Source of the DNA: Strigamia acuminata
Taxonomy: Eukaryota
Direction of reading: 5' to 3'
Assembly (NCBI GenBank): GCA_949358305.1
Contig: OX442314.1
Location: forward strand, 33,046,001-33,110,000
DNA: 64,000 nt
Of this stretch, positions 3-63,812 are shown one piece after another. The position numbers were made by a program, and so were the translations under genes. Position 1 is the first letter of the stretch; every line of letters begins with the position of its first letter. The notes beneath the pieces are model-generated. The model was given only the letters and a program-made list of their open reading frames with translations. It was not told the DNA's origin and ran no database searches.

Positions 3-2645
3 ATGGTGAACTTTTTTCACCGATTACTCAAGAATCTAGCAGTCATGACAGAACCTCTACGTCCTTTACTCAAAAAGGATGTGGAATTTATTTGGTCAGA
101 AATTCACCAAGAAGCTTTTGATCAAATAAAAGATGCTTTAACGAACGCAGAAACAATGGCCATGCCTGATTTGACAGAACCATTCATTGTGCATACTGAC
201 GCTAGTCGAAAAGGATTAGGCGCCGCGCTTATGCAAATGAGAGAAATCGATGATCAAAATATCGAAGTGCCTTGTGTTTATGCCAGCAGAAGTTTGCAAC
301 CTGCTGAGATAAATTACAGCGCCACAGAATTGGAGTGCCTAGCGGTAATCTGGGCATTACGTAAATTTCGACATTATTTGGAATTTACCACATTTATAGT
401 AAGGACTGACCATCAAGCATTAAAATGGTTGATGCAGTTAGACGAACCTGCCGGAAGGCTAGCACGTTGGCAAATGGAGCTGATGCGCTATTCTTTCGAA
501 ATACAATATATTAAAGGTCCACTAAATGTTTTAGCGGATACTTTATCCAGATCACCGATTGACAAACCGGAAAATCCTGAAGATGATGGAGATAATGATG
601 AATTATTATCTTACTGTCCATCACCGCAACGAAATTGGAAAATGGGAAAATTTCATGAGCTTCCTGTATCCGCACTAGAGGAAAAGGAAGATCACGAATT
701 CATCAACTATTGGACTAAAATTTATGACCCCTCTGAGGAATCAGATGACGTCATAAGAGCGCAAATTTCAAGGAAATTTCAAATTCCTTCGTCAAATGTC
801 TTAATAAAAGCATTTGTCGCCAAAATTGTAGAGCGTCTTGATTGTGAACCTCCCACAAGGAAAGACATAATTAAGGCCCAAAAAGAAGATAAAGTGTGCC
901 AATTGATGCGTAATTTTTTAAATTGTAATCAATTTCCGCCTGACGTCACAACGCGACTCCAGAGGAAACAATATAGAAAACACGCAACCACCTTCTTAAT
1001 TGAAGATGACTTATTAATGCAATTTCATCCCACAATGTCTGATGAATTGGGGGAGGATGGGAGAGCACTCAAAGTTTTTGTACCTCAGACATTGAAGTAT
1101 AAAATTATTTGGCTAATGCATGGCCACCCACTTTCTGGCCACCCAGGAATTGCAAGGACTCTTTATCGAGCACGCCGAATTTATACCTGGAAAGGCATGA
1201 AATCGGACATTACGAGATTCATTCGACATTGCGAGCGTTGTCAAGCTTGCAAACCTCGAACGAAAGGACAAATTGAAGCAGCGCAAATGGGTCCTTACAG
1301 CCCATTTGACTGCCTAAGTGTTGATTTGACCGGCCCGAAACCTCGGACGCGCAAAAACAACACACATATTTTAGTCATACTTGACGTGGCAACTCATTGG
1401 CCAGAATTATATCCAATGTGTAACCCCACTGCAGGAAAAGTAGCAAATTGCATTTATCACCTTTCCATGAGCATGGGATTCCCTCAAAAAATTATTTCTG
1501 ATAACGGCCCGCAATTTCGTGCCCAAGTCTTTAAAAAATTTTGTGAAAAGTTCAAGATGGTTCCAACACCAACTTCAACGTATCACCCACAGGCTAACCC
1601 GGTTGAAAGGGTTAACCGTGACATCAAATATCTTGTTGCAATTTATTCATCTGTTCATTCCAAATGGGACGAATATTTGCGTGAATTTGCATTTAGTTTG
1701 AGAACTACGGTGACGAGAGGAAGAGACTTCTCTCCCGCATTTCTTAACTTTTTTCGCGAACTCAGAGTACCTTGGGATCCAAGAATACCTGAAGGAATTT
1801 TGGTCGTAGATCCAAAAAACCCACATTTATACGTGCAAAAATTAGAAGCCGTTATCGCCGAAACATATCAGCACATGATGTCACATGTGTTAGATTTGCG
1901 TAGACGAGTGAATCTTAAAAAAAAAGGTGAGAAGTTCTCCAATTTTAAATTAAACGATTTAGTTTGGAGAGATTCTCATGTTTTGTCGAGCGCTGCCCGC
2001 GGCATTGCAGCCGGCATCGCTGATAAACGAACAGGACCTTATGTAATAACCAAAGTATTACAGAGAGGTTCAGTAGAATTGAGAAAGCTAGAAAATAACG
2101 AAATATTTCCAGCTGTCCATTCGTCGGAATTAACTCCGTATTTCCCGAGTTTCGATCAGGAAGTATGGCTCGAAGGCGAAGAAGTCGGTCAAAAGACTGA
2201 AAATATAATTAATACGTTAGATGACGATGAATTAAAGAAAATACCAGTCGATAATTCATCTAATCGCCCCCTGGAGTCCGATTTCGCACACAACGACGTT
2301 GAGCTCCGAGACAGTTTCAAAAAACTTGAAATTGCTAAAAAATTAAATAAAAAGGTGTTTTTAGAAAAGAAACAAAAAACATCTGAAAGAAAAGACTCAT
2401 CTGACTCAGTCTCCGATGACAATGAAAACGGCGATTTAAATACAATAAATCCCTCGCCGACAAAGAGATATAATCTTCGGACTCGTAAACCGAGAGGAAA
2501 GAACAACATGTGTCTTCTCCCCTCACTAACCTCGAGATCCAGGGATCAGCCTTATGACGTCAGGAGCAATTCCTCGAGTCCTAAGGTAACCAATCAACCA
2601 ATGAGATTGGATGACGTCGCTAACAGCGACGTTACCCAAACGTAA
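3..2645 (+). CDS. pol: Gypsy Pol, partial (RT C-terminus, RNase H, integrase)
   Basis: RNase H motifs HTDAS, YASRSL, YSATELECLAV, TDHQAL; integrase H..GHPG..CERCQ, VDLTGP, SDNGPQF, NPVER; GPY module. Confidence 0.96.
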   Translation: MVNFFHRLLKNLAVMTEPLRPLLKKDVEFIWSEIHQEAFDQIKDALTNAETMAMPDLTEPFIVHTDASRKGLGAALMQMREIDDQNIEVPCVYASRSLQPAEINYSATELECLAVIWALRKFRHYLEFTTFIVRTDHQALKWLMQLDEPAGRLARWQMELMRYSFEIQYIKGPLNVLADTLSRSPIDKPENPEDDGDNDELLSYCPSPQRNWKMGKFHELPVSALEEKEDHEFINYWTKIYDPSEESDDVIRAQISRKFQIPSSNVLIKAFVAKIVERLDCEPPTRKDIIKAQKEDKVCQLMRNFLNCNQFPPDVTTRLQRKQYRKHATTFLIEDDLLMQFHPTMSDELGEDGRALKVFVPQTLKYKIIWLMHGHPLSGHPGIARTLYRARRIYTWKGMKSDITRFIRHCERCQACKPRTKGQIEAAQMGPYSPFDCLSVDLTGPKPRTRKNNTHILVILDVATHWPELYPMCNPTAGKVANCIYHLSMSMGFPQKIISDNGPQFRAQVFKKFCEKFKMVPTPTSTYHPQANPVERVNRDIKYLVAIYSSVHSKWDEYLREFAFSLRTTVTRGRDFSPAFLNFFRELRVPWDPRIPEGILVVDPKNPHLYVQKLEAVIAETYQHMMSHVLDLRRRVNLKKKGEKFSNFKLNDLVWRDSHVLSSAARGIAAGIADKRTGPYVITKVLQRGSVELRKLENNEIFPAVHSSELTPYFPSFDQEVWLEGEEVGQKTENIINTLDDDELKKIPVDNSSNRPLESDFAHNDVELRDSFKKLEIAKKLNKKVFLEKKQKTSERKDSSDSVSDDNENGDLNTINPSPTKRYNLRTRKPRGKNNMCLLPSLTSRSRDQPYDVRSNSSSPKVTNQPMRLDDVANSDVTQT

Positions 2646-2687
2646 CTTCCGGTATTTAAACTGATCACTTCGCGTCTGAGTTCACTT
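2555..2687 (+). promoter_or_regulatory. Putative internal Pol II promoter of the Gypsy-1 accessory gene
   Basis: CRE TGACGTCA 2555 and TGACGTC 2612; CCAAT 2590 and 2598, ATTGG 2606; ETS-like ACTTCCGG 2645; TATTTAAA 2653; Inr-like TCACTT 2682, with its A 31 nt from the TATA T. Confidence 0.65.
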
Positions 2688-2855
2688 CGATCTCACACGT
2701 GTGTTAAGTGCTCATCTCCAAAAAACCAAAAACGAAACAATCGGATTATTTCAACGAGATTCTTCAATTGTAAGTAGTTTTTTCTTTGGAATTTTCCAAG
2801 GAAAAACTAATAAATTAATTTTCGTTTTTCTTTTCCATTTGGATTAGTCGTTCAA

Positions 2856-5697
2856 ATGGAAGAAGAGGAACCGAAAGAAGGAAGCGAAGCCGGCGCCAAC
2901 AGCCTCGAATTAGAAACAAATTCGACGTTGCTTGGTTCCGCAAACACCTCGAATGCATCCGTGGATGTCACCGAAGAGTCCGCCGAAGCGTCCGCCGAAG
3001 CTCAAGCCGCTCTGGCCGACGCTGCTGCCCGTTTGCCGGTCACGCCGCCCCGACCCCGCCTACGAGGAGGTCTCTTCGCCGATCCGAACGGCGAAACACG
3101 TGCACAGAGGCACGAACGGGTAAATAATTTAAAATAAAATTACCTTTCAGTCATGAAAAGTAATTAAAAGTGCATTTTCACTCGGAAAAAGCGAAAAGTT
3201 CGTTGGTAACGTCTTCGCAAGAAGGCGCCGCCATTTTTATCATCAGATGGCGCTGTGTCTCGTTTTTGAGGCGTTGCTACGGTAACGCTCCAACTTTGAA
3301 ACATAGCCATCGGGAACACCGTTTTTACACGATTTTTCAAATATTTTGAAAGATTAATAATTATAAACTGTTGAATGAAATCCTACTTGTGATTTTATTC
3401 GCTGAAAAACTCGAAAATAATTAATTTACACGAAAAAATGAATTTTAATTATTTCTTCGAATATTTTACAGATTATCAAGCTTCGGGAGACACATCTCGA
3501 GTTACATCCCGATGTGCCAACCGACCCTGGAATCTGGCGACATGCATTGCCACCAGAAATCATCAAGTCCAAGGGGAGATTGACGTTTTGGGCAGCTCGT
3601 CACAAGTTTTCCAAGGCGCTCAACAAGCGATGGGGCACGAAGCATCGGATTGCCCATCTAATTGAAGATTTTGGCCATCGCGACGCCCTCGAATGGGCCA
3701 TGAAGCGCGACACCCAAGGCCCACTACGGAACGTGTTGCTCGACTTCGCCTTCATAGTGATCGCTCAAGCGACGCGAGATCACCGCCGTTTCTTCAACGC
3801 TCCTGCGTGGGAGCGTCGACAGATTTTGGAGGACATCTTCCAACGTCTGGACCAAACAAAGGCCGAAATCGTGCGCCTTTACAACGAATCTTTCCGGCCA
3901 ACCACGGATGGAAAGAAACGTTGGGTACCGACAAGCCAGTCGGACATGCATCAACTCGCAATGGGCGGATGTTTGCGAAAAGATTTCGTGCCGAACCCGT
4001 ATCCAGAGCCTGAGCCCCGGATGCAGGTCGCTTCCACCATCCACGTGGCGCCACCGCGTTCCACGTCGAGGTCACGATCATCGAGGTCGCCCTACAGTGG
4101 CCGTCGCTCCTCCCCAACACAGTCGTCGGGGGAAGGCGCCATTGGAGGGTTACCTCCACTTCAGAAGACTCGTCATCGTTCACACCACCGACGCGAGTCG
4201 ACGCCGCCAAAAAGACATTCGAAGTCCGTGTCGAGACCCACATCCCGAAGCCGACCTCGAGTGCAATCGCGCCAATCTTCCGCGAGGAGTTCCATCTCGT
4301 CGCGTGAGGGAAAATCCAACGCTTCACAGCTGAGCGCTTCCACCTCCTCCTGCCAGATTGACTGGTCGGACGAGATCGAGAAGGAAGATCGTCGCATCGC
4401 CGCATTGCTAGCCGGTCAAGGAGACGTCAACGCTTCTTTACCGTTCGCTTGCCGTCCAGTCACCAGCGACATGCGACCAGACCCATCGGTGCCCGTGCCA
4501 CAAGTGACGACGGTCATTCGATTTGAGGGATCCCACACCTCTCCGGAGCCATTTCCAGCACAGGAGTGCGCTGATCTCTGGAGGCGATTCTCATCGTTTC
4601 CTGAGACAGCCCAGGCGATGTACCTCGCGAATCTAGACGCCTATCAACACGCTCAGATTCGCGAAGGTGAGAAGGGATGGCAGTGGCTTGCCCGAGAATT
4701 GGAGTCGTGCAAGTCCGACAAACAACTGCAACGAAAGTTGCAGAAGATGCACAGGAAGCTATCGGAGGGACTTCTTAGAATCCTGTTCCAAAGAGTCTTC
4801 CCTGACCTACGGATGGCTCTGGCGGCCGCCACTCGATTGTGGACCGTGCCGTTAGGGCTTCCACGAGCCTTGCTAGACGATTGGGAGTCAGTTCGCCCCG
4901 ATCCTCCAACAATGCTCGCCGAATTAACGCACCAAGCCGAGGCGACTGGCGAAACTCCGGCTGGATCCGCCATTCGACTACGGCAAGAATGGGCTACGCT
5001 GAAACAGCAGCGCGCAACGGAACGAGCAACCGCCCGTCCCGCTGGCGCACCACCGTCATCCGCAGCTCCACTCCACGCTGCCAGCACGGCAACGTCGAGT
5101 GTTTCCCGTGCAACCGAGGCACCTAGTTGCAACATCTCGTCTCCAATGGAATGGCTCGACAGCGACGATCGCGAGTTCGTCGTGCCCGTGGCCAGCAGTG
5201 CCAGACCAAAGACGCGCGCCCCGGCTTCGCGCAGATCCAGATCCCTCTCGATCTGCAAAAAGTCGCCGCCGCCACCGCCACCGCCAAAGGATTCGCCACC
5301 ACGAGATAGGGGATCAAATATGGCCACCTACCTCACCGCCTATCAACGTTTGCGCTCATTATACGCCTTTTGCTACATAACGAGCGCGACGAAAACGATT
5401 CTCCAGAACAGCGAGGATTTATGCAACCGAGTCCTCGCGTGGCTGGAGAACCACATCAAGGAACAACAGCCGTGGATCTTGCATCAACGCCTGGTGTTCG
5501 CCCGAATTACGCCTCAAGACCCGCAGGAGTATTTCGAGATGGGTTTCGGACGAAGGGATGATGTAGACCGCATAAAACAAGTGTGGCTCCACATCAACCC
5601 TGGCTTCCAGTCAGGACCGAACGCCGGCCGATCTTTGTGCACCGTCACAGAGCACAAAGATCCAAACGACCATTCAACGGACATGCTGCCTAAATAA
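2856..5697 (+). CDS. Spliced Gypsy-1 accessory protein, 829 aa (exons 2856-3119, 3472-5697); acidic N-terminus, Arg/Ser- and Pro-rich; unknown function, not env-like
   Basis: Donor CGG|GTAAAT (3120) and acceptor TTTTACAG|ATT (3471) are both phase 0 and join the 93-aa and 727-aa ORFs in frame; AT-rich intron; also a 5' UTR intron 2770-2847 (GTAAGT...TAG). Confidence 0.8.
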
Positions 5698-5869
5698 TTA
5701 GGGAACATGCCCATTCATTAAAAATAATTCCTTTTTTATTTTGTTTTACTGTAATAAAAAAGAATAAATATCCTGTTCCATTTTTACTTTGAAACCTTGT
5801 GTATTTATTCCTATACTTACCTGTCTCTTTTTGGAAAAGAATAAGATTCTTTCTTAAAAGAGGGGGAAG

Positions 5870-6852
5870 TGTGGTGACCTCAAATATTCGTATCTGAGTG
5901 CTCACCATATTTCCAAATTGTCTTATGATCATATCAAACATTCCTATATGTTTTGTTTCAATGTAAATTGAAATAAAACATACATTAATAAAATATAAAA
6001 CAAGACACAATATTACCCAAATAATATTGTGTTTTGCAGCAAGTTTTGGCCCAGCAACAGCGTCAACCAATCACGCTGCGGCGTGCATTGCTTTGATGAT
6101 GCTGCTAGGCGTGAGCCTGGGCGGAGCATCCCCTCCTCTCACGCGTGCCTGGCTCAATTGTTGCACACGACCCGAAGGCGGCCGTGTGTGATCTTTGTGC
6201 AACTCGTCATCTGCGCAGCTTTACTGAGCAGATTTAGGAGTGAGCCAAACGGTTTTGGCCCACTCTTCCCGCATTCTTGATTCTGCCTCCAAACTGTTCA
6301 CAACCGTGTCAAACTTATGCCAAAAACTGCTAAGTGTGATCTGTGATATTGGACAAATTGAGTTTCATTGCTGGTCTGTACCCATTGTACGGAATAGCGC
6401 TTTCATTGCTTGAATTACTAGGCGTAATTTAAGCCATTTCTGTGTGGAATTGACATAGAGCTTGCTCTGTCAATTTGTAGTTCTTTGTGTCGAGCTTGCT
6501 CCACAAAGGAATCTGTGTGTTAAGACGGATTGTTACGTCGAGCTTGCTCCGTAATAATCACTTTCACTGTGTGTGAGAAGTATTCTCGTGTCGAGCGTGC
6601 TCCACGAGGGTTTTAGTATATCTAGCAACGTATTTTAGCGTCGAGTTTACTCCGTTAAAATCCCGCGCTCACACGACGCCATCGACGCCATCTTGGAGCC
6701 AACGGTCAACTGTGAGTGTACATTTGAAGAAGAAGCCAGATCGACCCCAAACATTTTAAATAATACCTCCTGTGTATTTTGAACAATTAAAACTATCTAA
6801 TTTTTCCTTTACTCTGTGTAAAATCATTCCCCTAGACAAACATTTGGCCACA
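5870..6852 (+). repeat. 3' LTR of Gypsy-1 (about 983 bp)
   Basis: Starts TGTGG right after the PPT; CCAAT at 6067 and GC box near 6119. The 3' end is inferred from terminal CCACA only, since the partner LTR is outside the window. Confidence 0.7.
6363..6661 (+). promoter_or_regulatory. Array of RNA hairpins in the Gypsy-1 LTR (five bulged GAG-NNNN-CTC hairpins plus two upstream hairpins)
   Basis: Five stems with different sequences share one apical motif; within the listed stems the only non-Watson-Crick pairs are G-U on the + strand. Confidence 0.8.
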
Positions 6853-7149
6853 GAGTAGAAGTCCTGTACGGCATCTCACCGACGATTGCTTGATAAGTTT
6901 ACTCAATTTATTAAGTAAAAACCCGGATCGCCGCACTTTGAGGCACTAAACAGTCAGTCCAGATCTTTGACAAGTGGTCGATGGTGCGATGAGTCGCCAT
7001 TGAACTTGGTCATTTCAACCGTTTAGCAATTCTCTTCTTGGATAGGTTCCTACTTCCGATAGATTTCGAACAGAATAGATTCTCTCTTTACACAGACTCC
7101 ATTTAGAATAACTAGCTATCTCCTCACATGTAACAGGTTTCGAATAGTC

Positions 7150-44490: not shown

Positions 44491-45159
44491 TTACAATTTT
44501 TGCATTTTTCCCAGCAGCCTTCTATTCTCCAGTTCTGCTTCGTTTCTTAAAAGTTTATATTTTACGCTGTTGTCGTAGTGTTCTTTTGGCGTAAGATAGT
44601 TTTCGTGGTTTTTCACATACTGTTGTAATTTTGGCAAAACCATATCGTACGCTTCGATGATTTCTAACGTCTTGTGAGCGCCTGTGATGACTATTTTACC
44701 TGATTCAAACGCCAAAATTACAACACAAGGTTTCCGCAATCGATAAGCTAAGCCACAAAATGTTTCTGGTTGGTAACTAATCTCCGCGAGGTCGCCAGTA
44801 GGTGTCTCACATGGGGGATACAACTGTAATATCTCTAACTTAATTTTTCCTTTGAGATCAGCACTTGCCACTATATTTTGGATTTGGAATTTGCAAAGTT
44901 TCACTTCATATCCTATTCTTTGAACAATTCTCGCGAATCTTTTCACGGCAGTTCGCGCCAGCTCTTCAGTTTTTGCACCAATACAGACGAGTTTACCAGT
45001 ACTAAAAATAAGTGCTGTAGTTTTTGGTTTTCGGATACGCATTACTACGGCCGGAAATCTTTTTTGGTTGTACTCGCAGTTTCGTGCCTTCATAGTGACC
45101 TTTTCTAAATCTAATTTGCAATTCATCTGTGCTGTGGCCACAATATATTGAATGTACAC
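44491..45159 (-). CDS. TBP: Divergent TATA-binding-protein-like core with C-terminal extension; no ATG before the first strand (possible 3' exon of a TFIIB-TBP fusion)
   Basis: CKLDL..ARNCEYNQKRFPAVVMRIRKPKTTALIFSTGKLVCIGAK, IQNIVAS, SYQPETFCGLAYR..AFESGKIVITGA. Confidence 0.93.
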   Translation of the reverse strand: MYIQYIVATAQMNCKLDLEKVTMKARNCEYNQKRFPAVVMRIRKPKTTALIFSTGKLVCIGAKTEELARTAVKRFARIVQRIGYEVKLCKFQIQNIVASADLKGKIKLEILQLYPPCETPTGDLAEISYQPETFCGLAYRLRKPCVVILAFESGKIVITGAHKTLEIIEAYDMVLPKLQQYVKNHENYLTPKEHYDNSVKYKLLRNEAELENRRLLGKMQKL

Positions 45160-45538
45160 CCAAATCAAAAATGTGAGATGATATAATGCAGTCAGAACTA
45201 GTTAGTGTTTGTTACGACACTAGAGCGCAGTGTCTGTTGTTTGTTTCGTTACTAAGTGACTACGCATTCTGTCGTCTGCTTGTAATGGTTTACACGCTTT
45301 GATTAAATCTGTTCATTTATCAAAACACGAATGTAAGATCCAAATACATTTCACAAGTGGTAGCAGAGTACGGTTGATTTGTAGCATTTGTGGGCGAGTT
45401 TTGAGTGAAAATTAATCGATGGCGAGCGCAGACAGAAGAGTGTAAAGCGCGTGACCGTGAGTACGATAATTGGCTCAAACCTGTTCTTTCCTTGCCGAGC
45501 GTGCCAACTGGACGTTGATAAGTCGATAAAACGACAAG

Positions 45539-48500
45539 ATGGCGGAGGAACCGAAAGGGGCGAATGCCAACCGAATACCATTGCTGGATGAAACGAATTA
45601 CGTGATATGGAGTACGTTGATGGAGGCAGTGCTGGATTCCAAAGGTCTGTGGGAGCCGGTCATCAGGAAGGACGAACCGAATGCACAACCTGCGGCGGCG
45701 TGGCAGAAATGGAAGAGACATAATGCCACTGCACTGAGCCTCATCATGACGACGCTGTCACCTGACCAGGTGGGACTACACGTTGGTACAAAGAAAGCCA
45801 AGGTGTTATGGAACGACCTGGCATTGCACCACGGAGGAAACGTGCAGCACAGACAGGTGGACATAGGTCACGAGCTAACCAGCGCCAAAATGGGCCGGAA
45901 TGAGCTGGTGGGAGAGTACATCAACAGAATCGTCGCCATAAGCAAGAGGTCAGCGGCGGCGGGGCGACCGATAGCCGAGAGTGAGGTGATGTACTATTTG
46001 GTACACGGACTGACCAACAAATATTCGAGCATCGCTGAGACTTTTCAAGCGCAAAGAGACATGCGACTAGTCGACTTGAGACGCACACTGGAGGTGCGAG
46101 AGCGATGGGCAACGGATAAAGCAAAAGACGGACCCGTATTTAATGAAGAGGAAGCCTACAAGGCACGTGCGCGCGGTGGCAAACGCGACAAGATCGTTAA
46201 ATGCTACGAGTGTGGAAAAATGGGCCACTTTGCCAGGGATTGCCGAAGTAAACGTACGGGAGATGCTACTTCGAGCGCCAGTAACACCAAGGGAAACGGT
46301 GGATGTTACAACTGCGGAAAGCCGGGACACTTCGCACGCAATTGCAAGAATAAAGCGACGGGTGGACATGACGCTCAACGGGGACGCAATACGGCGAATT
46401 ACGCCAAACAGGAGGAGCGAAAAGAGGAACAAGGGGAACTTTTTTACGCACGAACGGATAGGACCTACGCTTTTCATACAAAGCATTCGACCAATTCGCT
46501 GGGGCCACAGGAATGGTTGTTGGACTCTGGCGCGACTGTTCACATGACATCGCATCGGGAATTTCTGACAAACTTCGAGCACGAGGAAGGAGTAGTGCAC
46601 CTTGCCGAGGACCAAGTGTCGAGCAAGTCGACAGGAAAGGGCATGGTCACACTTTGGAGTAAATTGCCAACGGGGAACGTGAAATTGGAAATGGGGAATG
46701 TTGTACATGTTCCAAAGTTGCGGGAAAATTTGGTTTCTGTATACGAATTAGCGCAACGAGGATTCAAAGTGATTTTTGATGACACACGGGCAATTGTGAC
46801 GAACAAGCAAAACATGATTCTGGCCACGGCACAGAAAAGAGACCGGATGTACGTTTTGGATGCGATAACGTGCGTGCACAGCGAGGAAGTCGACGCATAT
46901 GTTGTCAAAGAAGCACCGACGTCTCACAATCAAACCAATGACGAGCCAAAAAGACTAGAAAGAGTTTTATGGCACAGACGTTTGGGACACGCAAGCAACC
47001 AAAAGCTTGAGCAGGTACGAGACGGAAAACTCGTTTTGGGGGTGAATTTTGGGCCAGAAAAATTACCGCCATGCAGGGCATGCGTTGAGGGGCGGCAACC
47101 CAGAAAGGCGTTTAAGCGCATAACGGGACCGACAACAAAACGCCCTTTGGAGCTATGGTACGTAGATTTATGTGGGCCATTAGCATGGGGATATGATGGC
47201 AGTTATTACGCTTTGGTGATTGTCGATGATTTCACCAAATACGTGTATTTTTCTGCAATTCGGGAGAAAAGTGATGCTTTTGAAGAGATTGAAAAGCACA
47301 GAGCTAGAGAGGAAAGGTCGACAGGACTAAAATTGCAAAGAATAAGGACGGATAATGGCGGAGAATTCGTCAATGAACGATCGAAAGAGATTTATCTTAA
47401 ATGTGGAATTAAGCACGAGAAGACAGTGCCATTCTCACCGAAGAGCAACGGAGTCGTCGAAAGATATAATCGGACCATTGTTGAAAAGACAAGAACAATG
47501 CTCAAGTGGTCACTTTTACCAGACGGTTTTTGGCCGGAAGCGATGGCGACAGCCGTGTATATAATCAACCGAATTCCGACTTCTGCCAATCCGAAGACGA
47601 CGCCATATGAGGCGAGATATAACAGGAAGCCATCCGGGATGCACTTACGCGTTTTTGGATGCGCAGCGTACAGGCACATACCCAAACATATGCGAAAGAA
47701 ATTGGACCCAGTCTCCAAACCGGGTATCGTAGTGTAAGAAGGGATAGTGGTCTCACTCCGTCAGTTCCCTGATTCGCCACGGTGGCGCTGCTTTACACAG
47801 ACAGACTACTACAGCATAGAAATGCATGCTGAACTAGGTCAAAACCACTCATTTTGATTGTTTTAAGCATCAGTAGTAAAAATAATTTAAAAAATAATTT
47901 AAAAATAAAATAATATAAATAATAAAATAATAAAAATAAAAAAATAATTAAAAAAATTTTTTTTAAATTAATTTTATTCATTTTTTTACCAAATTAATGT
48001 TTGGTCGTCTAAAATATGTGTGCAATAATTATTTTTATTTCTGATGCTTAAAACAATCAAAATGAGTGGTTTTGACCTAGTTCAGCATGCATTTCTATGC
48101 TGTAGTAGTCTGTCTGTGTAAAGCAGCGCCACCGTGGCGAATCAGGGAACTGACGGAGTGAGACCACTATCCCTTCTTACACTATGCCGGGTATTATGGT
48201 TGGTTACTCCATGTGTCGGCAGGCTTACCGAATTTTTGACGAAAATGAAAACCGAATAATCGAAACTCGAGACGTGTATTTTATTGAAGATGCTAGGACC
48301 GCCGAAATACAGAAAGAATCGAAAAAACTGATGACTGAAGACAGCGCGGACAATCAAGTCGTTTTTCCGATTTTAAGTGGGGGGAAGAGTGATAATGAGG
48401 ATCATGAGCAATCAAGTGATGATGACGACAACGAGAAACAAGAAGAAGAAAACGAAGTATGGGAAACCGCTGATGAGGATGAGGACTCACCTGATGAGAT

Positions 48501-60400: not shown

Positions 60401-61194
60401 AGCACGATCACTGGGACAGATGCATTGACCAGATAAATTTTGCTTTGCACTCTGCCCCAAATGTGTCTACCGGTTTTACACCAGCAATACTGACGTATGG
60501 CAGGGAATTACGACCATTTTGGGATAATCGAGATGTGTCTTATGACACCCCATTCGACCCAAATAGGCCCTACGACGCTGTCAGAATGCTAGTCGCTAGA
60601 CACCGTACTCTGATTGCTGCAGCTTTTAAAAATAAGAGTCTGGCCCAAGCAAAACAGAAAACTTACTACGATCAACACCGCAGCGACGATAAGTTCGAAA
60701 TTGGAGATTTGGTTCTGCTAAAGACCCACCCATTGTCCAATGCTGCTAATCGATATGCTGCGTCCCTTGAGGATCGCTTTGAAGGACCTTATGTAATAAC
60801 TAAAGTCTTTAACAACAATGCGTATGCCCTTGCGAAACCAATAACTTTGCAAGCGAGGGGTACACACAACATTGTAAAACTCAGGAGATTCATCCCCTCA
60901 GAAGAAAAGGCTGAATGGCCCATTTTAGATAAGGAAGATGAAGAAGCTCTTGAAAACCAACCTGTGGACACTGGAACAGCAACAATATTGCCAACTCCAG
61001 TGCGACCAACGGAATCTGGTATCGCAACTAAGTTGCCAACACCAGTAAAACCTTTTGGGAAACCAAAAAGAATAAAACCCTTGCTGTTGCCACAAGTGGA
61101 TTCACAAAAACCCACGACGGCTCGACCAAAACCAAATTCGGACTCAAATAGACCTTCGAGAAATCACGTTTTACCGATCCGATATCGGGATTGA
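57421..61194 (+). CDS. pol: Gypsy-2 Pol (protease, RT, RNase H, integrase), -1 frame relative to gag
   Basis: ALMDSGAT, RMPFGL, YLDD, HTDAS, H..GH..CNRC, IDLIGP, SDNGPQF, GPY. Confidence 0.97.
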   Translation, partial: GKRGVAVDRNPRVTDDCALTIVLIPMEEDMEDALFDDISSTEPDPRVVFSTEPEIDHVNVALKTGKSITPLPYIKATLNGLKVTALMDSGATHRYISGGMLKKLNLLHFMTPFLENRVVYTGDRPTRPIGTITLSLKWRGGEIPVTFTVLPSASKFILLGCSWIIENRIVLNLTDREYFFLDFPHDTFPFDDPPSPEELGNAIMDRWDALVAESKSPSVSTADLSQRLLAKSNLSPRQRSQILTLVEKYRHVFSDKAGCHPTLEHPIPTGDAPSFRCKDRPMNPKKAEIYRELVAELLRDGWAEPCEGSYKNPPVIVAKKDGGYRLCIDFRWLNKITIKDVYQMPSISMILACLGGKKFFSTLDLTKGYYQIKLKPSDKKKTAFSTSDGTYQFTRMPFGLCNAPSAFQRMMDQVLGTAQHKWALAYLDDIIIFSDSFEEHLQHLDDILSKLDKNKLTASPSKSFICPEELSFLGFTMSNGSYSPNNDKVEAILNYPTPSSIKQLQRFIGMVGFYAALIPKLSITQKPFFALLKKDTKWEWSEECNVAFEYLKNQLAKGIMLPLPDFARNFTIHTDASGGGLGAVLMQIDDHGALRPVAYASRTLQGAENNYSTTDLECLAVVWAVDKFKPYIEYSEYQVETDHHALRFLMTMENPAGRLARWAMKLQNENFTIKYRKGTDNQVADALSRVSLDNGNPLEGKATLTEIIEPVALAYLTNETDYPMSFENIILQQRADKHLSKLIEWLELDDGQPRPELPKFLEERQYDCTLTRKGMLIIYAPFKTDFFVEEEDLGIGFKIFIPPSLQLAALQLIHDHPMAGHGGVEVTLERLKRVYFWPGMQKEVKLHVASCNRCQRCKPIQRKPKGLMVPTSPKIGRFEKIGIDLIGPLPRTSNRNRFILVVVDYATGWMEATPLRSAKMTAIAPILRRFFSCHGCPRFMLSDNGPQFISDVFQTLCDDAGVVPIKATPYHPQTNLTERVNRNIKIMLRIFTFEHDHWDRCIDQINFALHSAPNVSTGFTPAILTYGRELRPFWDNRDVSYDTPFDPNRPYDAVRMLVARHRTLIAAAFKNKSLAQAKQKTYYDQHRSDDKFEIGDLVLLKTHPLSNAANRYAASLEDRFEGPYVITKVFNNNAYALAKPITLQARGTHNIVKLRRFIPSEEKAEWPILDKEDEEALENQPVDTGTATILPTPVRPTESGIATKLPTPVKPFGKPKRIKPLLLPQVDSQKPTTARPKPNSDSNRPSRNHVLPIRYRD

Positions 61195-61415
61195 CCGCTA
61201 GGTGACACTTCAAATCGGGAGACCCATTTGGACCAATCACAGACTGTTTACAAAACATCTGCGGTCCATACGCCAATTAAACGTTCGCGAAACGTCTTCC
61301 GGTTCTATACTTAGCCACCACCATTCTTTGTCCAAATCACTTATTCGCTGCGATCGCCACTGACCAGTCGTGTGGAACTTCTCTGGAAAATCGAAACGAA
61401 AAGATTGGAAAAACG

Positions 61416-62690
61416 ATGGAAAATCACCGAAACAACGAATGGGTTCAGTGCCCAATCTGTAACGGCTTCGGCTACATCACGCTGTGGAATCTGTCGCGAA
61501 TCCCGTGCATGAACTGCGGCGGAGACGAAATCGTGCTGACGGATCAACCACTCGAGGAATGGTTTGTCATGTTCATGACGCTGCCCGGTCAGCCGATTCC
61601 GCTGCACCACCGACATATTAACTGGATGCGCGTCCGATCGCGCGCAGAACGCGAGAAGGAAATCGCAGACAGGGAACAAGCGCGTGTGGCGAATGCCGCA
61701 CCGACAGAACCCCCAAAGAAAAGACAGAAAACGGCAACGAAGAGCGTACGCTCTCAACCGCCGCCGACTGCCTCTACTAATATTTCGACGAAGAAAACCG
61801 CAGCGACGACGTCGCAGCAGGTTCTTCGTCCGCCACATAAGCCATTTGTGCTTAAAAAGAAGGCTGCCGAGGAGACAAAAGCGACCGTACAAAGTATCGT
61901 CGCCCCAACTCCTCACCAACCACCGACCGCCCGTCCAAACATTTCGGAGAAATTGCTGGAAATGCGACGGCTCGTGGCGATCGAAAATCCCACGTTGAGT
62001 GAACGAAGCGTGAATACCGAAGCAAAAATTCGGTACAGAGCGAAAAAACACGCGGACCATAAGGACCGAATGGCAAAAAGAGACGCCGAGAAAGCGGCTC
62101 ATCAGCAATTGACTGCGCCATCGGCCACAATCACATCGAATGCGCCACGCGCACTCGTTAAAAAAATCCCGGCTCAAACGGAAAAAACTCCCGATGAGCT
62201 ACGAACAGCTTGGGCGGGACAGTACGGCCCTCAACCAATCCAAGGTATTGTGAACCTGATCCCGACCAAAGCCACGGCGGCCGCAATCGCTTTTCCAGCG
62301 GCCTGCCAACTACCGCAAACGGCACAAACGATGTTTGGTGCCAATACAGCGGCGACGCCGGCTGTCATTATGCCGCCGATGGTTGGAGAACGCCCGACGA
62401 ACGTCGTGTTCCAGGGATTCGCGGATCCTCCACCAGTTTGCGACAACAATGTAGTCACCACCGAAGCAACGATCGAGACCGCGATGCAGATTGACGGCGC
62501 ACCGAACGAGGAGTCGCACACACCGCCACCACCACCGCCAGTCGTTCCCGAGCCCAAAGCTACCGCCGTGAAAAAGAAGTCGAATAAGAAGTCACGCAAG
62601 AAGCTAGCAGAAGAATTCGTCGACGACAAAACTGAAGAAGAGCCAAAAACCGACGATACGCCACCCACACCGGGGAAATCGCTGCAGTGA
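61416..62690 (+). CDS. Gypsy-2 accessory ORF3 (424 aa), N-terminal CxxC..CxxC zinc site, basic and Pro/Thr/Ala-rich; not env-like
   Basis: ATG-initiated ORF between pol and PPT; CPICNGFG..CMNCGG; no signal peptide or TM visible. Confidence 0.8.
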   Translation: MENHRNNEWVQCPICNGFGYITLWNLSRIPCMNCGGDEIVLTDQPLEEWFVMFMTLPGQPIPLHHRHINWMRVRSRAEREKEIADREQARVANAAPTEPPKKRQKTATKSVRSQPPPTASTNISTKKTAATTSQQVLRPPHKPFVLKKKAAEETKATVQSIVAPTPHQPPTARPNISEKLLEMRRLVAIENPTLSERSVNTEAKIRYRAKKHADHKDRMAKRDAEKAAHQQLTAPSATITSNAPRALVKKIPAQTEKTPDELRTAWAGQYGPQPIQGIVNLIPTKATAAAIAFPAACQLPQTAQTMFGANTAATPAVIMPPMVGERPTNVVFQGFADPPPVCDNNVVTTEATIETAMQIDGAPNEESHTPPPPPPVVPEPKATAVKKKSNKKSRKKLAEEFVDDKTEEEPKTDDTPPTPGKSLQ

Positions 62691-63812
62691 AGTTTTCGCC
62701 GTCGTTTTAAAGGAGATTTTGGCCAAGCCTGTTAAGACTTTTATAGTGCCAGAAATAATTTTTTTATTGTCAAAACAAGTTTTTTTTATTATTAATTATT
62801 CCAAAGTGTTAAAATTAGCATACTTACCTTTTAATGTTAAATGGATTCAATAACTACAAATGTTAGATTTTAAAGTTCAAAAAGTGTTTTTTATTCATAT
62901 ATATTTTTAAATTACAAGTGTTATTTTACATTTTTATTTTTCAATAGTGTTTAAATTGTACAAGTTTTCCATCCTGGGGGTAAGTGTGTATGTGTTCCTT
63001 TGTAGTGTTGTTATTTTCCCAAGTGCATTCCTACCGGTGATCTTCGTTCTAGCTGATGGCTCGTCCGAAATATGGTCATCTGATAAACTGAAAAAAGAAA
63101 AGTAATGCGATGTGTTAACTTTCAACAACCACTTCAGTGATTGCGTTGTACCCCCTCGTACTTACCTTTTTCCAGGGGGGGGAAATGTGACCAGCTGCCC
63201 CTGCGCACGGGTCGCTGCACTGCAACGGCAATGCACTTGGCGCAGCTCCAGCGCCTCTCGTATCTCGCGCAGCCTGTTGCGGTCCTCCGCAACCAGGTGG
63301 AGCTGCGGGCCTTTGGTCAAGCAGGATCAGGCCCCGGAAGTCGCCCTTCCGGAAGTGGTTGGTCCCCGTAGGGACAAGAGAGTTGTTGATCAACCAGCAA
63401 GGCGAACGGTCGTGTTGCGACCGCCTCCGAAACTGGCTATTGAGATAACCCAAACTATCGGCGTGGCGATGATATCGCCCGCCGGGACCTGAGCGTCCAG
63501 TTGCGCCACGTCCGCCGGACGTTAACCGTAACTTCGGCGGCGTGGCCCAAAACCGATTACCGACCTCGTGTGTCATGGCGGCCGATGGCCGCCGTGCCAC
63601 GCGGTCTGATTAGGGACGGTTCGAAGGAACCGCCGCCTTGGGAAATACACTATGGGACACTACAATCATACCCCTAGACATCCAATAAAGCCATAACTAA
63701 AACTATATTGTGTCTCCGTGTATTTCGTGGTTTGTTTTATCGTGTGTGTTGCGTCCAGCGCCTCCGTGGCTCTCCCCCGACCACGTGGCGTCCGTCCGAA
63801 CACTCACAACTC

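Follow-up and report, generated by a model that had tools for sequence, protein, structure and literature searches.

Five covarying bulged hairpins in the 3' LTR of a Gypsy retrotransposon: a candidate protein-docking RNA element

The export of intron-bearing genomic RNA from the nucleus is a largely open problem for LTR retrotransposons. CERV, the Rev-like exporter of the Gypsy-type element Cer1 of C. elegans, is a protein solution to it, as far as the available part of its description goes (PMC10309623). In the retroviruses, according to the accessible sections of the respective papers, the RcRE is located in the U3R portion of the 3' LTR and the RxRE at the 3' end (PMC3185809), and unspliced RNA can also be exported with the help of the Rem/RmRE system or of a CTE (PMC12789967). 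Some regulatory RNAs are recognized by way of the arginine-sandwich motif, in which a pyrimidine of the bulge joins the stem in a triple and the base beneath it is Watson-Crick-paired. Its TAR version consists of A22 and U23:A27-U38, and its version in ASM3 of 7SK consists of A39, a U40U41 bulge and A43-U66, as given in the available portion of PMC6189040.

The window, which is the whole stretch of 64,000 nucleotides of Strigamia acuminata DNA that was analysed, contains an array of five hairpins that is real and far beyond chance. All five hairpins of the preliminary description were located at their claimed places, hairpins 1 and 4 being one pair longer than had been thought (6447-6476 and 6582-6611). 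The array consists of the following parts, of which the hairpins rest on a sequence scan, on folding of each hairpin alone and on an alignment:

6447..6476, plus strand: hairpin 1, 9-bp stem, UA bulge, GAG/CUC, CUUG loop
6481..6510, plus strand: hairpin 2, 9-bp stem, UC bulge, GAG/CUC, CUUG loop
6528..6559, plus strand: hairpin 3, 10-bp stem, UC bulge, GAG/CUC, CUUG loop
6582..6611, plus strand: hairpin 4, 9-bp stem, UC bulge, GAG/CUC, CGUG loop
6632..6661, plus strand: hairpin 5, 9-bp stem, UC bulge, GAG/CUC, UUUA loop
6440..6573, plus strand: three CTGTGTG linkers at 6440, 6513 and 6567 (sequence; role putative)

The hairpins are built to a common plan. A lower stem of 9-10 bp carries a purine-U-N bulge, followed by an upper stem, GAG/CUC, that is invariant and a loop of 4 nt that is variable. 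Each of them, folded alone as the plus strand, recovers the drawn shape with a z of -1.8 to -4.0. When both strands of the 64 kb were scanned for a stem of at least 7 bp, a 2-nt 5' bulge, 3 bp and a 4-nt loop, nine matches were obtained, and the five that carry GAG/CTC are all array hairpins. A two-core pattern has three matches in the sequence and none in 100 shuffles. A model built from the five hairpins gives the array 39-44 bits, by construction because the same five sequences made the model, and gives the rest of the window 16 bits at most. The fold of the whole LTR keeps the full form of hairpins 3 and 5 only, hairpins 1, 2 and 4 being partly engaged in other pairings. A 251-nt fold retains hairpin 5 alone in its minimum-energy structure, and hairpins 3 and 5 together with most of hairpin 1 in its centroid. 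A search of Rfam with positions 5600-7100 returned 13 matches up to E=10, all of them far under the gathering threshold. The CTGTGTG linkers, which had been described as recurrent, do precede hairpins 1, 3 and 4, but not hairpins 2 and 5. They are probably relics of a duplicated unit, or single-strand UG binding sites.

The lower stems were claimed to differ in sequence and still to pair, and this is borne out by an ungapped alignment of the five hairpins, in which all of the 65 cells pair and two-sided changes affect 9 of the 13 pairs. The covariation score of the alignment is reached by none of 500 shuffles. Controls with slid partners give only 40-52% pairing, a comparison in which the structure, being drawn from the same five sequences, is favoured over the slid partners. 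The 5' arms have between 1 and 6 of 9 letters in common; each forms nine of nine pairs with its own 3' arm and two to eight of nine with the 3' arms of the other hairpins. A scan for a triple-core pattern yielded at least 120 metagenome stretches (with flanks for 80) and 27 viral ones, 147 loci being listed. One of these has two short stems (5-6 bp) and two have a single stem of at least 7 bp. Only 2 of the 1281 sequence-only cores in the 147 loci have a stem of at least 9 bp, and the core therefore does not bring the stem along. None of the 147 loci listed is a relative of the array outside the source organism, and none resembles the DNA of the element.

It was also proposed that every imperfection of the stems is a G-U pair and that the sense RNA is therefore the functional form. 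The first part stands, as the non-Watson-Crick pairs make up 6 of 46 in the lower stems and every one of them is G-U. The second part is suggested by these pairs but not decided by them, because three of the six (6482/6509, 6583/6610 and 6638/6655) are Watson-Crick in most of the contig depth from other copies, and G-T outnumbers A-C by 8 to 3 when the whole LTR is counted in a strand-neutral way (p=0.23). The fold energy of the lone hairpins is lower on the plus strand than on the opposite strand in all five cases. From energies and wobbles together, the sense strand is favoured as the functional RNA form.

Contigs aligned from three of four sequencing runs (1500, 594 and 379 of them, with none from the fourth) differ in many cases, and the element therefore belongs to a multi-copy family, in which the summed contig depth is not equal to the copy number. 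In the region 6425-6690, 40 of 54 differences were classed, and the counts that follow are based on these 40. None of the 35 core places (the bulge U and GAG/CUC) varies, compared to 23 of the 139 unpaired places (Fisher p=0.005), in a set from which contigs less than 80% alike were left out, with a possible bias toward an invariant core. The lower stems, with 9 variable places of 92, are not significantly less variable than the unpaired places (p=0.18). Eleven changes fall into the lower stems: six keep the pair by themselves, three do so together with a listed change of the partner (pairs 6482/6509 and 6637/6656, the linkage of the two sides being read from similar contig counts), and two break a terminal pair. 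The variable spots in other copies lie in the linkers, in the loops and at the second bulge letter, which varies in three of the five hairpins. In hairpin 2, the first and last loop letters change jointly in some copies, as they do in hairpin 5. The loose ends of the contigs contain, by eye, at least two more stem versions that are different but complementary and have the same core, besides a few others that could not be judged. The conserved gCUUGc tetraloop of the preliminary description does not hold up: CUUG is present in three of the five loops here, and other loops of 4 and 5 nt are present in other copies. It was rejected as a signal, as both the letters and the length of the loop vary among copies.

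The array is part of a Gypsy element, which has the following features in the window:

3..2645, plus strand: 3' part of pol (RNase H and integrase, Gypsy order; Pfam), open at the window edge
5753..5768, plus strand: two AATAAA ahead of the polypurine tract, where the ORF3 mRNA may have a 3' end of its own (motif scan)
5856..5869, plus strand: polypurine tract (sequence)
5870..6935, plus strand: 3' LTR of the Gypsy element, TGTGG...CCGCA, right end approximate (polypurine tract ahead, contig breakpoints)
6786..6791, plus strand: ATTAAA, candidate poly(A) signal of the LTR, 125 nt downstream of the array and with U/GU-rich sequence after it (sequence, motif scan)

The assignment to Gypsy (Ty3) is based on RNase H standing before integrase, on the polypurine tract and on the TG...CA LTR, all read within the window, while gag, reverse transcriptase, the 5' LTR and the target-site duplication lie beyond it. 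The relatives found for pol are distant only, and none is in viral contigs. Contigs from the three sequencing runs start at 5870/5871 with unrelated flanks, and their depth falls after 6932; the LTR therefore extends over about 5870-6935, and the array occupies LTR positions 578-792. In a motif scan, two elements lie upstream of the array, a CCAAT at 6065 and a GC box at 6119, and one lies downstream of it, a YY1-type motif at 6686; we take all three to be promoter motifs. As these flank the array on both sides, the array, which had earlier been put in R/U5 as probable, can lie in either U3 or R. In both cases, a genomic RNA that extends to 6786 would have the array at its 3' end.

The whole LTR is rich in hairpins when folded. 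Further long stems with G-U pairs on the plus strand are present at 5947-5982, 6001-6036, 6405-6437 and 6886-6918. The first of these has the AATAAA at 5972 within its 3' arm and might mask that signal. A perfect minus-strand splice donor, TACTTACC, occurs in the 64 kb at 5814, 62821 and 63159 only, and never in the other orientation. All three sites lie between ORF3 and the polypurine tract of the two Gypsy elements in the window. On the plus strand, TACTTACC presumably corresponds to the 5' letters of U1. Its placement hints at a spliced antisense RNA from the 3' LTR.

Behind pol, the element carries an additional open reading frame, ORF3, with the following parts:

2588..2660, plus strand: candidate internal promoter of ORF3 with two CCAAT, CRE, ETS and TATTTAAA (motif scan; activity putative)
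2770..2847, plus strand: candidate intron in the 5' leader of ORF3, GTAAGT...AG (sequence motif)
2856..3119, plus strand: first coding exon of ORF3, 88 aa, acidic, ATG at 2856 (translation; donor at 3120)
3120..3471, plus strand: candidate phase-0 intron of ORF3, GT...TTTACAG, acceptor 3471 (frame kept, sequence motif)
3472..5697, plus strand: second coding exon of ORF3, 741 aa, with helical blocks and a disordered, RS-rich region by prediction, orphan (sequence, prediction)

We assume that CCAAT, CRE, ETS and TATTTAAA act at 2588-2660 as the promoter motifs that they resemble. Judged from the sequence, ORF3 is apparently a protein of 829 aa, its 88 and 741 codons being joined in frame by splicing. 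The array has an accessory frame in the same Gypsy element, as had been pointed out earlier. The protein itself is not of the arginine-rich Tat/Rev type for which it had been taken, but of the RS type: it contains 10.4% Arg, no stretch of 12 residues has more than 4 of them, and residues 201-300 of the second coding exon (P0002) contain 18 Arg and 29 Ser. Its cysteines are scattered and form no cysteine-rich domain, and the export pattern L-x2-3-hydrophobic-x2-3-L-x-L/I has no match in P0002. No relatives of ORF3 were found among 7994 candidates of near length or, at E<=0.001, among 1.84 billion representatives, and there was no match in PDB or Pfam. Structure models from the single sequence were poor (pLDDT 40.8 and 50.0), and a fold search with the second of them returned nothing at E<=0.001.

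The window contains a second, complete-looking Gypsy element at 53012-63808, with LTRs at 53012-53634 and 63186-63808, the target-site duplication ACTC and a Gag with a CCHC knuckle. It is 49% identical to the array-bearing element over RNase H. Its LTR is GC-rich and strongly structured (z to -4.9). Its ORF3 (61281-62690) is an orphan too, as a protein search found no relative for it; it contains a CxxC...CxxC motif and is located behind CCAAT/ETS motifs. The model built from the five hairpins detects no array in this element, which does have the promoter-like motifs and ORF3. An ORF3 with an internal promoter may be a trait of this Gypsy lineage. The LTRs of the two elements are otherwise unrelated, but have CCCCTAGACA in common near their 3' ends (6829-6838 and 63671-63680). 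A copia element with LTRs of 185 nt is located at 45172-50669, and the open frame of a TBP-like gene, recognized by eye on the minus strand at 44491-45201, stops at the copia LTR. The region 17557-44500 contains long, apparently intron-poor ORFs for a zinc finger, a Jun-like bZIP and pieces of an ADAM protease, and also paralogous orphan ORFs (32680/40006 and 34830/36384/37588) amid satellites. This cluster is possibly the cargo of a large mobile element. The Jun-like and ADAM genes point to an animal as the probable host.

The bulge regions of the hairpins resemble an arginine-sandwich site. A paired purine, a bulge beginning with U, and then a G-C and an A-U pair follow one another in five of five hairpins, by sequence and predicted pairing, in agreement with the TAR-like local geometry that had been suggested. 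Besides this common core, the array has a G as third pair in common with TAR, and a bulge of two nucleotides in common with ASM3 of 7SK (available portion of PMC6189040). Its fixed and free letters are distributed as predicted for such a site, although the match has few letters and was spotted after the fact. We take the upper stem of TAR to read GAGC/GCUC. The MS2, IRE and boxB hairpins have geometries that differ from that of the array, and an identity of this type was rejected.

The array is very probably a selected, multivalent protein-docking element in the sense RNA, and likely works in the manner of TAR or RcRE. By analogy, its ligand could be ORF3, acting on unspliced RNA as Rec and Rex do, a proposal which we put forward tentatively and which falls somewhat short of an even chance. 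The sole link of ORF3 to the array is that both are in one element. Against ORF3 as the ligand also speak its lack of a dense arginine run, the lack of the export pattern in P0002, and the second Gypsy, which likewise has an ORF3 with promoter-like motifs but no array of this kind. In the proposed process, ORF3 made from the internal promoter would occupy all five hairpins. A U:A-U triple would be formed by each bulge U, with an arginine sandwiched there in the manner of TAR and 7SK. With ORF3 bound to the array, the genomic RNA would stay unspliced and reach the cytoplasm, similarly to the Rec/RcRE system of HERV-K or the Rex/RxRE system of HTLV. The genomic RNA must retain the two sense-strand candidate introns of ORF3 in each retrotransposition cycle, and help with export would thus be needed. 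Export by ORF3 is ranked first among the readings because an element whose sense-strand introns persist from one RNA cycle to the next has to package RNA that is unspliced. It is conceivable, if not quite probable, that a Gypsy element has independently evolved a complete switch of the complex-retrovirus type, in which an orphan protein from an internal promoter and five tandem hairpins license export or elongation.

The ligand might instead be a host protein with an arginine motif, such as a HEXIM-like protein or an export or splicing adaptor, and the array would then act without ORF3, either constitutively or as a decoy in the manner of 7SK; this is unlikely. According to the available sections of the papers, the motif is native to hosts, as it is carried by 7SK SL1 and conserved in invertebrates (PMC6189040, PMC10083321), and host NXF1 is bound by CTE-type elements (PMC12789967). 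ORF3 lacks a classical arginine motif. For HEXIM, however, a GAUC/GAUC pseudo-sandwich is required, and its binding was lost when the pair beneath the bulge was G-C, in the experiments reported in the accessible part of PMC6189040; a G-C pair lies under the bulge in four of the five hairpins. Even with a host ligand, the array would be an undescribed cis-acting RNA element.

Less likely still is a TAR mimic, with the array located in R just behind the start site, where ORF3 or a host elongation factor would act on the nascent RNA to release a paused polymerase. The core geometry equals that of the TAR bulge and of ASM3 of 7SK, and a transactivator role would suit an ORF3 promoter that is independent of the LTR, as with Tas of foamy virus (available parts of PMC6189040 and PMC3185809). 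The CCAAT at 6065 and the GC box at 6119 lie on the proper side of the array, but TATA is absent at a fitting distance, and R would need to be at least 350 nt long. The YY1-type site at 6686, which we assume to mark start sites, is behind the array and could equally indicate a downstream start. TAR has a hexaloop, whereas the loops of the array are variable and 4 nt long (5 in some copies); the six-letter apical loop of TAR contacts cyclin T1. Tat has a dense arginine run and a cysteine-rich domain, and ORF3 has neither. Because both the loop and the protein differ, the array is not a TAR. A position of the array upstream of the start site would bring down this TAR reading only, since U3 of the 3' LTR is transcribed anyway.

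Next in order, and improbable, comes a signal for packaging or reverse transcription that has Gag or Pol as its ligand and to which the UG linkers would add nucleocapsid sites. Co-operative capsid assembly would suit repeated equal hairpins, and if the ORF3 mRNA ends at 5753-5768, the array would mark the genomic RNA only. However, packaging signals are usually located behind the primer site and outside the LTR, and the Gag of the second Gypsy has a CCHC knuckle; knuckles of this type recognize unpaired G and not arginine sandwiches. The least likely reading is a tandem-duplicated array of DNA palindromes (GAGC-NN-GCTC), similar to that of Sirevirus LTRs and with no RNA ligand, whose arms would be kept complementary by template switching: this can make two-sided changes in one stroke (bioRxiv 10.1101/2021.04.15.439925, available part), the LTR is hairpin-rich throughout, as is that of the second Gypsy, and the strand-neutral G-T/A-C count is not significant, but repair of this kind would be expected to remove a bulge of 2 nt on one side, which is kept in five of five hairpins, the first bulge letter is fixed and the second free, GAGC-NN-GCTC itself is broken in hairpin 5, and the sequence of Sirevirus palindromes is unconserved (PMC4728375, in the portion available).

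A search of titles and abstracts, mostly of non-subscription literature, found no TAR-like hairpin array in a retrotransposon. For the problem of RNA export, the array is a small, modular candidate that is supported by covariation and whose fixed letters predict mutants. In it, the arginine-sandwich motif known from TAR and 7SK would have arisen independently outside the retroviruses. If ORF3 and the array do form a switch for export or elongation, they would be, within the reach of the searches, the first defined pair of a protein and its RNA response element in an LTR retrotransposon.

The comparison with the known systems, for which the accessible sections of the cited papers were used, can be extended as follows. 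The LTRs of Sireviruses also have a few hairpin-forming repeats in their cis-region; these are plant Copia elements with unconserved sequence, whereas the array has a fixed one-sided bulge core and covarying stems (PMC4728375). The array differs from TAR and 7SK in that it has five copies in a row and no GAUC/GAUC dyad. In foamy virus, as may be the case here, an accessory gene, Tas, is expressed from an additional plus-strand promoter close to the 3' end, but Tas binds DNA, whereas the candidate target of ORF3 is RNA (PMC3185809). Cer1 is likewise an LTR retrotransposon with a novel spliced accessory protein, which is required for export of its genomic RNA and gives the role proposed for ORF3 a precedent. 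CERV, however, shares exons with gag, whereas ORF3 lies downstream of pol and resembled no protein in the searches; and the available part of the CERV report describes no RNA target, whereas the array is a candidate RNA target of ORF3 (PMC10309623).

Other systems similar to this locus are Rec/RcRE of HERV-K, Rex/RxRE of HTLV and Rem/RmRE of MMTV, which also have a structured RNA in or beside the 3' LTR, an extra, apparently spliced regulatory ORF and an intron-bearing RNA that needs export (PMC3185809, PMC12789967). These systems are retroviral, whereas the carrier of the array is a Gypsy retrotransposon with no env-like match. Proteins of the Rec/Rex type have an arginine-rich RNA-binding motif and a leucine-rich export signal, whereas ORF3 has an RS-type region and no arginine run, and the export pattern searched for was not found in its second coding exon. 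Rec has a mass of 14.7 kDa in the accessible text, whereas ORF3 is 829 aa long and has a candidate promoter of its own. The array, finally, differs from the response elements of the Rec/Rex type in being composed of five equal small modules.
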